A stretch of 64,000 nt of DNA from Polyangiales bacterium (GCA_044229975.1 JBGARZ010000005.1:320001-384000), one strand, 5' to 3'. Positions 48,718 to 54,779 are shown, numbered from the stretch's first letter. A program made the numbers and translations. Notes: generated from the sequence alone by a model not told the origin.

Positions 48718-49005
48718 TCACCCCTCCTGGGGTGACGTCGCGACCGGCGGAGTGATCGACGCACACAGCGCAATGAAGTCCGCGCGCGATCGCAGCGACG
48801 CGCGGGCGACGACGGCGTGGCCGAGCTCGTGGACGAGGATGCTGACGAACACCACCGCGAACCACTCGACGACAAACGCCGCTCCGCTGCGGCGCGATCC
48901 GAGCGCGAGGGTGACGAGGAAGAAGCTCGGGTGGATCGCGACGGGAAAGCCCGCGACCCGGAAGCGGAGAGCGGTCGGTGTGGCGTTGGCGGACTCGGGA
49001 TTCAC
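48718..49005 (-). pseudogene. 3'-truncated site-2 protease (peptidase M50) remnant
   Basis: FRVAGFPVAIHPSF...VSILVHELGHA is a typical M50 N-terminus. Similarity ends right after HExxH, and the NxxPxxxLDG motif is absent. Confidence 0.75.
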
Positions 49006-49011
49006 GGAGCG

Positions 49012-50676
49012 CTACGCCAGCACGAGCTCGCGCAGCAGGTCGAGGCTCACGTTGCCGCACGCGAGCACCCGCCGATGAAACTCCTTCAAGGGCCCCAGCT
49101 CCGCGCGCACCCAGTCGTCGCGCAGCGCGAGCATCGCCCGCTGGCCGACCTTGTACGAGATGGCCTGCGCGGGCCATCCCAGGTAGCGCGTCACCTCGCT
49201 GCGGGCGGTCTCGGCGTTCATGCCGCCGAGGGTCTCCATCATCTCGACCGCGCGATCGAAGGTCCACGGCTGACCCGCGTGCAGCAGCGCATCGTCGGGG
49301 ATGGTGAGCCCGAGGTGCGACCCGATGTCGATGACCACGCGGCACGCGCGCATCATCTGGTTGGCGAGCATCCCGAGCTCGTACTCGGGCTTCTCGTAGT
49401 AGCCGAGCTCGCGCATGAGCTGCTCGACATAGAGCGCCCACCCCTCGGCGTAGCCCGAGTAGCCGTAGGCCACGCGGTGCAGGCGCGAGAGGTTCTCGGT
49501 GAGCGACACCTGGATGCCGCACTGGAGGTGATGCCCCGGAAAGCCCTCGTGGTAGGCCGTGCTGACCTCGTCCCAGAGCGCGAACGGGCCGTCGCCGGTG
49601 AGCGAGTACCAGACGGTTCCGGGGCGCGAGAAGTCCTCCGAGGGCGGGAGGTAGTACGCGCCAGGAGGGCCGCCATCGGGCGCGGCCTTCACGTCGACGC
49701 GACGGATGGAGTCAGGCACGTCGAAGTGCTTGCCGTCGAGCTCGGCGAGGGCGCGTGACTGGCGGTCGTTCATCGCGGCGAGGAAGCTCGCGCGGTCGGG
49801 CGCACCGCGCGCGGGGTCGCTGCGCAACATCGCCATGGTGTCGGTGAGCGACGAGCCTGGCGCGATGGCCGACGCGAGGGCGGTCATCTCTTCGTGGAGG
49901 CGTCGCACCTCGGTCCAGCCCCAGGCGTAGGTCTCCTCGGGGTCGGGGGTCGACCCGAGGAAGCGTCGCATCTCGCGCAGGTACCGCGGCCTGCCGACGC
50001 CGTCGTCGGACTTCGCGCGCGGGAGGTAGGTGCCTTCGAGCCAGTCGCTCATCGATCCGTACGCCGCACACGCTTGCGTCGCGGCGGCGGTCACGCGCGC
50101 ACCGAGCGCGGCGTCCTCGATGCCCGCGGCGGCGAACCTCGATGCGAGCGCGCGGAAGGACGACTGCTCGCCCTCGTTGGAGCGCCCCTGCTCGATGGCG
50201 GCGCGCACCTGTCGGACGGCGACGAGCTGTCCGTGATCGAGGCCCTCGGCGAGCGAGCGGCGGTAGCCGTCGAGCACAGTGGCGACGCCTTCGAGGCGCG
50301 CGGCGATGGCCGACCACCCGGCGGCGCTGGTGGTGTCCATGGAGTCGAACACCATGCGCACCGACTGAAACGGCGACGCGAGGTGGTTGAGGTCGACGCG
50401 GTGGTCGCCGTGATCGAAGGCGGCGAGGTCTTGATCGAGCCAGTCGAGGGCGACGTGGACGGCGAGGCGCGACCATCGATCGGGCTGCGGCGGGAGCGCG
50501 GCGAAGCGATCGCGCCAGGAGCGCAGCGTGGCGGCGGCGTGGGCCGCGCCGTCGGGGGAGAGGTCGTCCCAGCGATGGTCGTGGCCGGGGATGCCCATGA
50601 AGGTGGCCTGCATGGGGCGGAGCGCCGCGAGCTCGTCGACGAGCGCGTGGCTGAGGGCGAAGGGGTCGTTGGTCAT
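49012..50676 (-). CDS. DUF885 family protein (metallopeptidase-like)
   Basis: AYYLPPSEDFSRPG, YHEGFPGHHLQ, EGWALY and WPAQAISYKVG. Confidence 0.92.
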   Translation of the reverse strand: MTNDPFALSHALVDELAALRPMQATFMGIPGHDHRWDDLSPDGAAHAAATLRSWRDRFAALPPQPDRWSRLAVHVALDWLDQDLAAFDHGDHRVDLNHLASPFQSVRMVFDSMDTTSAAGWSAIAARLEGVATVLDGYRRSLAEGLDHGQLVAVRQVRAAIEQGRSNEGEQSSFRALASRFAAAGIEDAALGARVTAAATQACAAYGSMSDWLEGTYLPRAKSDDGVGRPRYLREMRRFLGSTPDPEETYAWGWTEVRRLHEEMTALASAIAPGSSLTDTMAMLRSDPARGAPDRASFLAAMNDRQSRALAELDGKHFDVPDSIRRVDVKAAPDGGPPGAYYLPPSEDFSRPGTVWYSLTGDGPFALWDEVSTAYHEGFPGHHLQCGIQVSLTENLSRLHRVAYGYSGYAEGWALYVEQLMRELGYYEKPEYELGMLANQMMRACRVVIDIGSHLGLTIPDDALLHAGQPWTFDRAVEMMETLGGMNAETARSEVTRYLGWPAQAISYKVGQRAMLALRDDWVRAELGPLKEFHRRVLACGNVSLDLLRELVLA

Positions 50677-50766
50677 GGTGGCGAGCGAGACCAACGCTTC
50701 GACGGGCGTGGCGTCAAGCCGCGGTCGTTCTTGACAGCTACCGACGGCGGGAGGGACATCGTCGAC

Positions 50767-51873
50767 ATGTTGGGCTCGGTTCGAATCGTGAACTTCAAGG
50801 GGCTTCACGACGTGACGGTGCCGACGGGTCGCCTCACGGTGCTCGTGGGCCCGAACGGAGTTGGCAAGACGAGCGTCCTGGAAGCGATCGAGTTGGTCGG
50901 ACAGGCCGCGACGGAAGCGCGACCGCAGCTCTTCAAGAAGGACGTTCTCACCGGACGCTTTCGTCGTGAGTGGATCCTGCGATCGGGTGCCTCGGAGCTA
51001 AGCGTCGAGTGTGCGCTGGACGGTTTGACGCTCGCGCTCGCGGCGAAGTCGGGCGCCGCGTGGTGCGAACTCAAGGTCCGCGACGACGGCAGCAAGGACC
51101 AGCGCATCCTTGATGCGACCGACGATCCCCACGTCGAGCGGCTGCGAAACGTCGCCCGACTGCGCTTCGATCCAGAGTCGATGGCGAACTCACCCGTGGT
51201 CTCGGAGGGCTCGCCCTCGCTCTCGGCCGACGGGAGCGGATTGCCCACGCTACTTCAGTATCTCCATGGCCTGAGAGACGGCACGCTTGAGCGCATCGAG
51301 GCGGCCGTTCGAAGTGTCGTCCCGCGATTCCTGCGAGTTCAGTTCCGTCCGGTGGGTGTTCCCAACCACGGTTTCGAGAGCCACACGATCGACGGCAAGT
51401 CCTTCCTCGTTCCGACGTCGGGCGAGAAGGCGGGAGTCGGCCTCTTCGTCGAGTTCGAAGATGGCGTGGTGACGCCCGCCACCCACGTCAGCGAAGGAAC
51501 CCTCCTAACCATCGCGCTCCTGACGATGGCACACGCATCGTTGATCCACGGAGCGAGCCTCATCCTGATCGACGACATCGACCGCGCGCTGCACCCCGAC
51601 GCCCAGTTCTCGTTGGTGGAGGCGCTGCGCGAGGTGTTGAAGACGACGCCATCGCTTCAGATCATCGCGACGACCCACTCGCCCGATTTCGTCGATGCGT
51701 GCGAGTTCGACGAGGTGGTGGTCATGGGATTCGACCCGCTCAACGGACCAGTCGCCGCCCCGCTCTCGGCTCACCCTGAGGCGCAGCATTGGCGCACCCT
51801 GATTCGCACAGGCGAGTTCTGGGGCACCATCGGTGAAGGCTGGGTGAGGTCCGTCGAACGCGCCGCGGAATGA
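50767..51873 (+). CDS. ABC-type (AAA_15/AAA_21-like) ATPase
   Basis: VNFKGL, Walker A GPNGVGKT, signature VSEGT, Walker B/D-loop LIDDIDRALHP, H-loop TTHSP; no TM partner. Confidence 0.9.
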   Translation: MLGSVRIVNFKGLHDVTVPTGRLTVLVGPNGVGKTSVLEAIELVGQAATEARPQLFKKDVLTGRFRREWILRSGASELSVECALDGLTLALAAKSGAAWCELKVRDDGSKDQRILDATDDPHVERLRNVARLRFDPESMANSPVVSEGSPSLSADGSGLPTLLQYLHGLRDGTLERIEAAVRSVVPRFLRVQFRPVGVPNHGFESHTIDGKSFLVPTSGEKAGVGLFVEFEDGVVTPATHVSEGTLLTIALLTMAHASLIHGASLILIDDIDRALHPDAQFSLVEALREVLKTTPSLQIIATTHSPDFVDACEFDEVVVMGFDPLNGPVAAPLSAHPEAQHWRTLIRTGEFWGTIGEGWVRSVERAAE

Positions 51874-52703
51874 GCGCTCCAGGGTGCGTTGCGATCGTCG
51901 GTGAAGACACCGTCCATGCAGTGCTGCTGTGCTGTCTGCTCCGCCAGGTCATCCGTGAAGCCGCGCGCGAACTCGGCCAGGAATGGATCGTCGAGAACCT
52001 TATCGCCGACCCAGCGTTCGTCGGGCCGACGGATCTCCACTCCTTCATCCCAGGTCTCCACTATCGCTGCTCGATTTCTTCTGCGCCGGCGCGAGGTCCT
52101 TCGGCCACGATCGATGGAAGGCCCATCAAGCTGCGAGGACACCTCGATGGCTCCCCGATTGGTCCCGAAGGACAGAAGTGGAGGCACCTTCTGCTGGAGG
52201 TTCTCTCGGACGCGCCGGACGTGGTGCTCATCGCGAAGGACACCGACGGCAGACCAGAAAGCCTCGACGGACTTCGCCGGGTAGCGCGCTACTACGCCGA
52301 GGCGGACTCCTCGCGCGTCATCGTCGTCGCTGCGCCACACCGCGACGCCGAGGGCTGGTTGGTCGCGGGCTTCGTCCCGACCCCTGCAACCCACGAGACG
52401 AAGACGCTTGCGACCGTCCGCCGCGACCTGAACTTCGATCCGACGACTTCGCCAGAGCGGCTGACGTCGCACCCCAACGACGCCCCGACCGATGCGAAGC
52501 GCGTGCTCCGTCAGTTGCTCAACCTCGCACCCATCGTCAGCATGCCTCCCTCGCCCGAGGACTGTGCGCTGCTCCAGGAGCGACTGTTGGGCGACCTCGC
52601 CCTCCTCCGAGCGCGGAACGCCGAATCAGGGCTGACAACCTTCCTCGACGACCTCACCCATCACGCACTGCCGCGACTCTTCGGCGTGCTGCGACCGCGC
52701 TGA
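51870..52703 (+). CDS. Hypothetical protein, TOPRIM-like (DUF4276/DUF4435/RloB-like) partner of the ATPase
   Basis: ATGA overlap; N-terminal IVGED, VLIAKDTD (DxD) and DAEGWLVA motifs. Confidence 0.6.
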   Translation: MSAPGCVAIVGEDTVHAVLLCCLLRQVIREAARELGQEWIVENLIADPAFVGPTDLHSFIPGLHYRCSISSAPARGPSATIDGRPIKLRGHLDGSPIGPEGQKWRHLLLEVLSDAPDVVLIAKDTDGRPESLDGLRRVARYYAEADSSRVIVVAAPHRDAEGWLVAGFVPTPATHETKTLATVRRDLNFDPTTSPERLTSHPNDAPTDAKRVLRQLLNLAPIVSMPPSPEDCALLQERLLGDLALLRARNAESGLTTFLDDLTHHALPRLFGVLRPR

Positions 52704-53746
52704 GCCCCCGGGGCAGCGCGCTTCGGCTTGATCCCCGCGGCGATGCCCGGGTGCTCGGCGGCGAGCTCCTCGAAGCGCGCGACGATGCGGTCCTTCCGCT
52801 TCTTGAAGTGTGCGCGGTTGTTGCGGACCTTCTCCATCAGCACCCGCGCGACGCGCTCCGACGGCGCCAGGTCGAGCAGCGGGAAGCCCGAGTTGAAGCC
52901 GTTGAGCGCCTTCGCGCCCGTCGGGCCCCAGTCGGTCATCAGCCGCCGATAGACGACCTCCTCGCGGCGCTCGGGCGACAACGCGCCGAGAATCTCCCGC
53001 CCCGTCGCATCCCCCCAGAACGGCACAACCAGATCCCACCGCGGCTCCAGCGTGACGCCCGCCCGCACCAGCGGGAGCAGCGCGAGCACGCCGAGCGTGT
53101 CCAGCTCGTACAGCCCGAGCATCCCGTAGCCGAACGCGTCGTCCCTCATGTACGGCGCGTCGGGTTTGCGGAGCGACGCGAGCACATCGGCGAAGACGGC
53201 AGCCCACCCGGCCGCGCTCGCGGCGTGCCCATCGAGGACGCCTCGCAGCCGCTCTTCCAACGGAAACCCATGGATGCCGTAGGGCTCCAGCACGCTCTCC
53301 GCCGCGGCCTCGATGACCTGCGCGGGCGTGAGGTGCTCCATCAACACGAGGGGAATGCCCTGGCCGAACTCCAGCGCCTCATCGGGCTGCGCGAGCCACA
53401 CCTTCCACAGCGGCCACTCCACCGCGACGCCCTCGTGCGTCCAGGGGACGCGGCGTTCGAGCGCGCCCGGCGGGTCGACGCCCAACCAGCGACGCAACAG
53501 CCGCTTGCTCGACGGCAGCCCGTTGCCTCCCGCGTCGACGCCCTCGCGCAGCAGCGCCTCGGCCACGCGCCGCTGATCGGCGGTGAGCTCCTCTGGAAGC
53601 GCGATCTCTTCCCACCGGGGCCAGCGCGCGACGCAGCCGGTGCGGCGGATGGCCTCCCGCGCGGCGTCACCGGCCCGCGATACGTCGGGGTCGCCGGCGA
53701 CGATGCGAAGGAGGCCGTCGAGGTCTTCGGTGAACGTGGGTTCCAT
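52661..53746 (-). CDS. Hypothetical protein
   Basis: Long ORF with GC3-biased codons and protein-like composition; no recognised motif. Start uncertain. Confidence 0.7.
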   Translation of the reverse strand: MEPTFTEDLDGLLRIVAGDPDVSRAGDAAREAIRRTGCVARWPRWEEIALPEELTADQRRVAEALLREGVDAGGNGLPSSKRLLRRWLGVDPPGALERRVPWTHEGVAVEWPLWKVWLAQPDEALEFGQGIPLVLMEHLTPAQVIEAAAESVLEPYGIHGFPLEERLRGVLDGHAASAAGWAAVFADVLASLRKPDAPYMRDDAFGYGMLGLYELDTLGVLALLPLVRAGVTLEPRWDLVVPFWGDATGREILGALSPERREEVVYRRLMTDWGPTGAKALNGFNSGFPLLDLAPSERVARVLMEKVRNNRAHFKKRKDRIVARFEELAAEHPGIAAGIKPKRAAPGAQRGRSTPKSRGSA

Positions 53747-53849
53747 CGCGCGCATGGCCCGAGTGGATACCCGAGCGATCGCCCGCTCGACCACAATGGG
53801 CTTGAGTCCGTCCTCCGCGCGCCTCTACCTTCTTCGATGGAGGACCCTC

Positions 53850-54647
53850 ATGGCGCTGAAGAACCTGACCGACAACGAAATGCTCGAACTGTCGTCCGCC
53901 TGGATCGACCCGAACCGCCGGCGCCCCGCGCTCGAAGCGCAGCCGCTGCTCGCGGCGATGCTGCCCAGCATCGAGGCCGCCCACGCGGGGCTCCTCGCGG
54001 GTGACGGTCCGACCGGTGACGACGCGCGGGAGAAGGAACGCGCCGCGCTCTACGAGCAGGGCGTCACCCTCGACCAGCGGCACGACCGCAAGGGCCGCGG
54101 GGCGTTTACGCTGCTGACCGCCCTGGTCGACCTGAGCGACGACCCGGCGGAGGCCGAGTCGCTTCTGGCGTTGCGGCACGCGCTCTTCCCCGACGACAAC
54201 CTCGCGGTGCTCTCCGCGAGCTGGAAGGGCGAGGCCGGCAACGCGCGTCGGGTGCGCGAGAAGGTCCTCGGCGACAAGGCCCTGACCGCCTTGCTGAAGG
54301 CCATCCCGTTGATGGGAAGGCACACGCTGCTCGACGGCGTGAAGGACTTCGTCGGCGCGGCAGAGAAGCTCGGCGCGGTCGAAGATCGGCGCGTGGCCCT
54401 GGAAGAGCCCGCCACGCCCGACGCGCGCTCGGGTCGGGTGAAGGCGCGCAACCGCTGGATCGCCGTGAGCAACAGCCTCGTCCACCTCGTCGACGACCTG
54501 CTGGAGCTGGAGCCGACGGCGCGACGCGCGCTGCTGGGCGCGACGACGGACGCCGAGGGCAAGGCCGACGCCCGCGCGCTGGGGCGACGCCCCGCGGAGG
54601 TGGTCGCCGAGCCGGTCAAACCGGTTTCGGGGCCGGGTCAGGGGTAG
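53850..54647 (+). CDS. Hypothetical all-alpha protein
   Basis: GGAGGA RBS before ATG 53850; helical composition (LDQRHDR, ALFPDD, ARNRWI). Confidence 0.8.
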   Translation: MALKNLTDNEMLELSSAWIDPNRRRPALEAQPLLAAMLPSIEAAHAGLLAGDGPTGDDAREKERAALYEQGVTLDQRHDRKGRGAFTLLTALVDLSDDPAEAESLLALRHALFPDDNLAVLSASWKGEAGNARRVREKVLGDKALTALLKAIPLMGRHTLLDGVKDFVGAAEKLGAVEDRRVALEEPATPDARSGRVKARNRWIAVSNSLVHLVDDLLELEPTARRALLGATTDAEGKADARALGRRPAEVVAEPVKPVSGPGQG

Positions 54648-54676
54648 TTCGCAGCGACCGAAACCGATCGGGAGGC

Positions 54677-54779
54677 GGGGTCGAGGGTGGTCGGCGATTG
54701 GTTGCACACCCACCGAGACCGGGGTCGAGGGTGGTCGGCGATTGGTTGCACACCCACCGAGACCGGGGTCGAGGGTGGT
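54677..54779. repeat. 44-bp intergenic tandem repeat (2 perfect copies + a 15-bp partial copy)
   Basis: ggggtcgagggtggtcggcgattggttgcacacccaccgagacc at 54677 and 54721; partial copy at 54765. Confidence 0.95.

Follow-up and report, generated by a model that had tools for sequence, protein, structure and literature searches.

The systems that combine an ABC ATPase with a TOPRIM protein form a class whose members include HEC-01, MAD3-MAD4, PARIS, AbiL and OLD. HEC-01 is described as not protecting E. coli (bioRxiv 2024.01.29.577857). MAD3 and MAD4 are reported to assemble with 2:2 stoichiometry into a complex that introduces nicks into plasmid DNA when supplied with Mg2+ or Mn2+ and whose toxicity requires expression of both genes, with an interface that joins C-terminal W/L residues and post-D-loop and H-loop residues of the ATPase to the segment of the partner before its DxD/E motif (PMC13662399). 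In PARIS, the coiled-coil bundle of AriA is the Ocr-binding site, and AriB contacts both copies of the ATPase, docking via its first helix (PMC10802264); once released, AriB is reported to cut tRNA (PMC12409363). BREX is described as recruiting TOPRIM-linked OLD-ABC modules, with nuclease-linked OLD-ABCs overall present in at least 1,242 taxa (PMC12839542).

The window analysed here is a stretch of 64,000 nucleotides from a Polyangiales bacterium (GCA_044229975.1, JBGARZ010000005.1:320001-384000), in which an initial annotation had singled out an ABC ATPase gene and a gene for a divergent TOPRIM-like partner as a candidate anti-phage module resembling PARIS. The two-gene, ATGA-coupled arrangement that it described is present, with both open reading frames intact on the same strand (Table 1), and from the overlap we infer that the two genes are translationally coupled; in 24 of 38 related loci the stop codon of the ATPase gene likewise falls within an ATGA or a GTGA. 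The pair lies between a divergent DUF885 gene and a convergent 377-aa gene. At the window locus no transmembrane gene adjoins the ATPase, nothing passed a scan for sigma-70 promoters, and the flanks of the pair itself share no common repeat of 9 bases or more. The nearest named homologs are from Polyangiales and other Myxococcota.

Table 1. Features of the gene pair and of its surroundings, numbered from the first base of the window.
Feature	Coordinates	Strand	Remarks
Variable 6.05-kb segment between FHA gene and selB	48727..54779	.	Holds the pair, DUF885 and two further genes
ABC-type ATPase gene	50767..51873	+	Intact ORF, 368 aa; AAA_21/AAA_15
Walker A, ATPase residues 28-35	50848..50871	+	Intact; G28, G33 and K34 kept in 120/120
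Predicted long two-stranded beta-hairpin arm, ATPase residues 188-230	51328..51456	+	DSSP of model
Walker B, ATPase residues 265-270	51559..51576	+	LILIDD; Asp270 for catalytic Glu
C-terminal motif, ATPase residues 338-359, predicted partner docking site	51778..51843	+	Conservation and predicted interface
ATGA stop/start overlap of ATPase and partner genes	51870..51873	+	
Partner gene, TOPRIM-like predicted nuclease	51870..52703	+	Intact ORF, 277 aa
Family-specific insertion part, partner residues 81-113, between TOPRIM Glu and DxD	52110..52208	+	Predicted ATPase-binding surface
Putative partner site: E12, H16, D124, D126, D159, E161, K210	within 51870..52703	+	

A GC scan bears out the earlier remark that the pair is richer in A/T-ending codons than its neighbours, GC3 being 0.804 for the ATPase and 0.772 for the partner as against 0.896-0.959 for 11 chosen other genes of the window. 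Across the genome (10 Mb, 71% GC), 332 and 274 of 4,777 long ORFs have GC3 values at or below 0.80 and 0.78 respectively, which places the pair in approximately the lowest 6-7%, a ranking that rests on a crude ORF caller.

The ATPase matches AAA_21 (E 1.7e-26) and AAA_15 in Pfam, and its PADLOC matches rank as HEC-01A (E 2e-31, residues 122-316), mad3 (4.9e-27) and AriA (6.1e-26, with the best stretch confined to residues 187-310); the HEC-01A model carries no curated cut-off, and many models of ABC defence ATPases match this protein too. The NCBIfam MAD3 model gives it 79.6 bits, far short of the cut-off of 420. Motif conservation was counted among the best 120 of 245 homologs, in all of which K34, the signature residues S242 and G244, and H304 of the H-loop are invariant; towards the C-terminus G349 is kept in 119, W352 in 112 and W359 in 118. 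The structure model (pLDDT 92.7) contains no coiled-coil insert or bundle, its longest helix being of 19 residues, and the place occupied by coiled coils in AriA and SMC-type proteins is taken by the predicted hairpin arm. The arm is shorter in some members, the span from P186 to A238 varying from 34 to 61 residues among 29 cognate ATPases and being 52 in most. Foldseek matches the model to PtuA, SMC and Rad50 heads with TM 0.5-0.6.

The reading of Walker B as DD instead of DE was correct, with D270 at the usual position of the Glu. Position 270 is Asp in 117 of the best 120 of 245 homologs, with Glu, Ser and Gly once each; the query profile is itself Asp-rich, with one column contributing a minor share of scores that exceed 320 bits. 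Asp is likewise found in 33 of 35 cognate ATPases, whereas ATPases linked to matches of DUF4276 or HEC-01B have Glu in 43 of 44 cases, and the ATPases beside 13 MAD4 matches have EE in 12, one being unparsed. In a quick tree of 79 ATPases a branch with SH-aLRT 97 separates the 35 cognates from the rest; the midpoint of the tree serves for drawing only, the sequences used for comparison were drawn from a single phylum, and partial and duplicate loci were omitted. Judged from these alignments, the Walker B Asp is a trait of the clade, and its recurrence in the cognates and homologs rules out a pseudogene lesion or an assembly error. We also dismiss the idea that DD is unprecedented among defence ATPases, because the Walker B consensus given for long Lamassu LmuB, a defence ABC/SMC ATPase, is hhhhDD (PMC12663957). 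ABC exporter sites in which Glu is replaced by Asp are reported to retain hydrolysis at a much slower rate (PMC7756269). Asp is not obligatory for the family, since a second pair in the same genome (L019:9225-11060, equivalent to G000:C39:335724-337559) has an ATPase that retains DE; in the quick tree this paralog branches close to the clade's base.

The partner of the window has no match in Pfam, PADLOC (even at E <= 1) or NCBIfam, and the earlier suggestion that the effector is too divergent for current models holds. A word search gave 52 matches, and a profile search extends the family to 1,218 clusters at 50% identity, or 988 at 1e-10. The acidic motifs reported previously are present and conserved above chance: among 126 aligned members E12 is found in 125, D124 in 124, D126 in 123, E161 and W163 in all 126 and K210 in 125, and position 16 holds mainly His (58 members) or Asp (57 members). 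A TOPRIM domain is defined by a conserved Glu after strand 1 and a DxD after strand 3 (PMC12065111), and both the family alignment and the partner model (pLDDT 92.2) place these residues accordingly, with E12 following strand 1 (residues 6-11) and D124 and D126 following the strand at 118-122. The residue set parallels those described for Bp OLD (E400, E404, D455, D457, T506, E508, K562; PMC6755086), AriB (E26, D30, D88, E90, E122; PMC11464382) and MAD4 (D81, E83, E119, E121, K164; PMC13662399), with the mapping made by order and spacing rather than by superposition. On this pattern the partner is likely to be a metal-dependent nuclease of TOPRIM type.

Relatives of the partner provide a bridge to catalogued families. 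At E <= 1 the HEC-01B model matches 38 of the 126 members (best 1.9e-5), PDC-M25B 22 and PDC-M31B five, and none is matched by PADLOC AriB. DUF4276 (PF14103) matches 12 of the 126 at the same threshold (best 1.6e-4) and the MAD4 NCBIfam model two (best E 0.039), neither matching the window partner itself. DUF4435 is absent among the Pfam matches listed, which cover 25 of 42 families, each of the remaining families having at most one member, and the PF14491 profile found nothing in the same genome. Profile-profile alignment by hhalign pairs the family with 15 HEC-01B-model sequences at 97.1% (E 6e-11, 149 columns), with E12, the DxD and ExEAW in register; the match to 13 MAD4-model sequences is weak (42%, E 2.6e-4, 128 columns), that to 26 DUF4276 sequences reaches 35% over 54 columns, and that to DUF4435 is 0.2%, a weak control with only three sequences. 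The partner therefore appears, on profile evidence, to be homologous to HEC-01B and DUF4276, yet lies outside their models. One feature separates it from both: the spacing between the Glu and the DxD is 87-133 residues in 124 members and 55-72 among HEC-01B-like and DUF4276 sequences (measured two residues short in the former), from which we conclude that the family bears an insertion. Among the 126 members, G90 within this insertion is kept in 116, G94 in 109 and P96 in 92.

Comparison of folds is not decisive for this assignment. Among the longest VIA structural alignments of the partner model are those to 2P62 (Z 7.7, rmsd 5.3, 181 residues aligned), which is PH0156 and presumably belongs to DUF3226, and to OLD chains (Z 6.3-7.3, rmsd 4.5-5.7, 165-174 residues), including 6NK8 (Z 7.3, rmsd 5.0, 169 aligned); the OLD chains are tied with unrelated Rossmann-like folds at Z 7-8.5. 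AriB was not seen among the matches listed in the two VIA outputs for this model. The top VIA rows, riboflavin/lumazine synthase and Argonaute MID domains with 110-135 residues aligned, were taken to reflect a common arrangement. Foldseek, run with the model of the partner, matched nothing but pantothenate-synthetase entries (TM approximately 0.3, rmsd approximately 12), which we dismissed, and the single match of a profile search against PDB sequences is a designed-repeat artefact.

The two genes are strictly linked. In a sample of 65 loci, 61 of them non-redundant and 56 of these with a near-full-length partner, the ATPase lies immediately upstream of the partner in 55 of the 56. The sole near-full-length partner without an upstream ATPase (L151:6586-7377, minus strand) is in a genome that has three other complete pairs. 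A model of two ATPase chains with one partner scored 0.75, as compared with 0.00 for the best of three controls; 116 of 157 solved complexes score at least as high, as do two of 215 mismatched pairs, a calibration that is only rough for the alignments and number of chains used here, and the score may have been raised by likeness to ATPase-effector structures already solved (those of PARIS and Septu). At least 93% of contacts are shared between the runs, which have a partner pLDDT of at least 84 and place partner residues 81-113 and 142-149 against residues 277-282, 306-311 and 338-359 of both ATPase copies. The insertion of the partner is thus predicted to dock on the ATPase dimer; the complex was modelled without ATP and, owing to a size limit, at 2:1, and the model does not fix the stoichiometry. 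The description of the pair as an ABC ATPase with a divergent TOPRIM-like partner is upheld by the motifs, by the linkage and by the profile kinship with HEC-01B-type TOPRIMs.

Recent acquisition of the pair at its present site is supported by comparison with genomes of the same genus. In one of these (G365) the flanks are collinear, the variable segment is absent and the FHA gene adjoins selB, as it does in two others (G403 and G404); another (G402) has a different stretch of approximately 1.6 kb at this site, and G401 and G406 are uninformative. Across the phylum the family is present in 28 of 401 genomes, and within the same bacterial family in 13 of 18, with up to four copies per genome at unrelated sites; the pair is a mobile cassette. 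Neither the 72,556 plasmids searched nor the viral contigs provided a relative, the former giving no match to the pair and the latter 52 pattern matches of which none was confirmed. The DUF885 gene of the segment (window 49012-50637, minus strand) is 88% identical to a gene elsewhere in G402, and may therefore have been relocated rather than imported. The other two genes (52661-53794, minus strand, 377 aa, and 53829-54647, plus strand, 272 aa) have ordinary GC3, no match in Pfam, PADLOC or NCBIfam and no paralogs in the genome; since all three are absent from the 65 related loci, they are not parts of the system. A perfect 44-base tandem repeat of 2.4 copies (54676-54779) marks the right edge of the segment, and a 7-base word is seemingly present at both edges.

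Genomic neighbourhoods were scanned in two rounds, covering 64 of 107 called neighbours at 18 loci (E 1e-8) and the nearest 99 of 167 called neighbours at 26 further loci (E 1e-20); L009 duplicates L007, leaving 43 non-redundant genome loci, and generic kinase, Lon, helicase and HerA-type matches were not counted as defence neighbours. Eight of the 43 lie within or beside BREX, DISARM or restriction-modification genes (L001, L005, L006, L007, L013, L015, L018 and L162). The pair sits between pglX and pglY in L005, a layout shared by a metagenome locus outside the 43 (L134), and between drmD and drmMI in L013 and L015. In L005 and L134 it is inserted into the BREX operon with stop/start coupling, suggesting co-expression with the defence genes. 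Because the genome of the window has, at 1e-20, two drmD/drmMI loci and no match to pglX, pglY or pglZ, the frequency of such adjacency expected from chance alone is on the order of 1 in 1,000, a rough figure given that the loci are kin and the background is this one genome. Some defence-type neighbour is present in six more loci (L004, L144, L154, L159, L163 and L165), and none among the genes scanned in 29 of the 43 or at the window, where the neighbours are DUF885, FHA, selB and two genes without assignment. Of the earlier proposal of an acquired defence module, the acquisition at this site, the strict linkage and the recurrence in BREX and DISARM operons stand; neither the window nor most of the homologous loci are defence islands.

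Several other arrangements were recorded at these loci. In L007:2136-17385 and L009:1181-10501 a Septu-like ptuA and the pair are stacked between pglX and pglY, and a ptuB-like gene was confirmed in L009. The DISARM-like drmD/drmMI loci of the genome are at G000:C12:12136-19150 and C31:11744-23008, the latter with approximately 4 kb between the two genes. Approximately 2 kb downstream of the paralogous pair there is a reverse transcriptase gene (L019:13141-14877, plus strand; PADLOC RT_UG36, E 2.5e-170; GC3 0.52), and approximately 5 kb from that same pair another AAA_15/AAA_21 ATPase (L019:2277-4045, minus strand) is followed by an unassigned ORF of approximately 186 aa. The same genome also has a conventional HEC-01B-like gene (L104, G000:C29:117011-117574; E 2.1e-24) with an EE-type ATPase upstream.

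What does this linked and mobile pair do? With slightly more confidence than doubt, we favor a back-up defence complex acting against phage or other invading DNA, composed of the ABC ATPase and the predicted TOPRIM nuclease. In the predicted complex two ATPase subunits would clamp ATP, and the insertion of the partner would dock on the C-terminal motifs of the ATPase beside the D- and H-loops. By analogy with MAD3-MAD4, the complex and not the free partner would be the active nuclease, nicking DNA with Mg2+. The Walker B change from Glu to Asp would probably slow hydrolysis, and if so we propose that this protein serves not as a motor but as a long-lived nucleotide-state switch. Infection could plausibly be sensed through loss of BREX, DISARM or restriction-modification, or through a phage protein binding to the hairpin arm, and the nuclease then unleashed would arrest or kill the cell, giving BREX and DISARM a back-up. 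Against this, HEC-01 as the nearest catalogued system is reported to have failed to protect E. coli (bioRxiv 2024.01.29.577857), 29 of 43 loci have no defence neighbour, the fold match is not decisive, and the commonness of the family in 13 of 18 genomes of its bacterial family also fits a non-defence role. As to substrate, the complex model does not discriminate between DNA and RNA.

If the pair worked as PARIS does, the ATPase dimer would restrain the TOPRIM protein until a phage anti-restriction protein freed it, whereupon the partner would dimerise and cut host tRNA. One partner touches both ATPase copies in the model, as AriB is reported to do (PMC10802264), E12, H16, D124, D126 and E161 parallel AriB E26, D30, D88, E90 and E122, a location within BREX fits an anti-anti-restriction role, and a slow ATPase would be compatible given that Ocr lowers ATP turnover by AriA. 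We nonetheless think this unlikely: the AriB model matches none of the 126 members, the ATPase has 368 residues to the 464 of AriA and lacks the coiled-coil bundle to which Ocr binds in PARIS, and the predicted interface is made by the insertion and not by a first helix of the AriB kind. Rather less credible still is a selfish cassette, toxin-antitoxin-like or directed against plasmids, whose spread would depend on the fitness effect that it exerts itself and whose presence in defence operons would reflect only their tolerance of cargo. Its mostly solitary position among housekeeping genes, low GC3 and occurrence in up to four copies per genome at unrelated sites would all fit such an element; the searches of 72,556 plasmids and of viral contigs without a match, and the suggested co-expression with BREX genes at L005 and L134, count against it. 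A lineage-specific nuclease for DNA repair or processing (RecF/Rad50/OLD-like), with no role in conflict, is the most improbable of these explanations, since the family has no fixed locus, is absent at this site in genomes of the same genus and from all but 28 of the 401 genomes of the phylum, and is placed repeatedly in BREX and DISARM; the SMC/Rad50-like head and the presence of a member in most genomes (13 of 18) of the bacterial family are what speak for it.

Returning to the back-up defence complex, its elements can be drawn together into a more elaborate joint reading, which as a whole we hold to be doubtful. In an unnamed clade of more than 1,000 clusters both sites of the ATPase homodimer would be degenerate through the Glu-to-Asp change, and the insertion of the partner would clamp the heads beside the D- and H-loops, so that the partner licenses or gates hydrolysis; the complex would sense the nucleotide state, its beta-hairpin arm replacing coiled coils, and would serve as a stand-alone myxobacterial defence that also guards BREX and DISARM. 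If defence is confirmed, current annotation overlooks a family that is common among myxobacteria and comprises approximately 1,200 clusters. For ATPases of this kind the relative importance of ATP binding and hydrolysis is described as open by Payne et al. (bioRxiv 2024.01.29.577857), and the link between hydrolysis and cleavage as unresolved in the account of MAD3-MAD4 (PMC13662399); a clade whose Walker B Asp occurs naturally, together with a Glu paralog in the same genome, offers a ready pair for the question of binding versus hydrolysis.

How, then, does the pair relate to the systems already described? A literature search found no description of the clade or of its DD motif, and earlier surveys or their supplements may include the family. 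Its place in the broad ABC and TOPRIM class is indicated by the invariant Walker A, signature and H-loop residues and by linkage in 55 of 56 loci. The PARIS-like label in its narrow sense did not survive, with no match of PADLOC AriB among 126 members and an ATPase model without the coiled-coil insert. The likeness to PARIS (AriA with AriB/DUF4435) lies in architecture, acidic pattern, an effector lying across the ATPase heads and recruitment to BREX; the difference lies in an ATPase of 368 rather than 464 aa, a beta-hairpin rather than a coiled-coil bundle, and a Walker B Glu (E393) in AriA. Long coiled coils, a zinc hook and the co-operating proteins LmuA and LmuC, all features of Lamassu LmuB, are absent from the pair. 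OLD TOPRIM nucleases (6NK8 and 6NJV/W/X) and PH0156 (2P62) agree with the partner in predicted catalytic residues, the additional Glu and the Lys among them, although the TOPRIM of OLD is fused to its ATPase and the pair consists of separate genes. MAD3-MAD4, of MADS, likewise joins an ABC ATPase to a TOPRIM-like partner, mad3 is the second-best PADLOC match, and the predicted docking surfaces of the pair resemble those of MAD3-MAD4; the scores, however, are far under the NCBIfam cut-offs, and there is no mad operon (methyltransferase, kinase, MAD7-8) at the window. HEC-01, with which PDC-M25 and PDC-M31 are grouped as the nearest PADLOC candidates, resembles the pair in its two genes, encoding the ABC ATPase HEC-01A and the stand-alone TOPRIM HEC-01B, and in being embedded in other systems, but the partner described here has approximately 35-40 extra residues between the Glu and the DxD and a longer C-terminus, and the ATPases of the pair, with their Walker B Asp, form their own branch (SH-aLRT 97 in the quick tree). 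On sequence comparison we place the pair as a distinct and uncatalogued branch of the known ABC and TOPRIM class, closest to HEC-01 and MAD3-MAD4: the architecture itself is already known, and in this branch the catalytic Walker B Glu of the ATPase is replaced by Asp.
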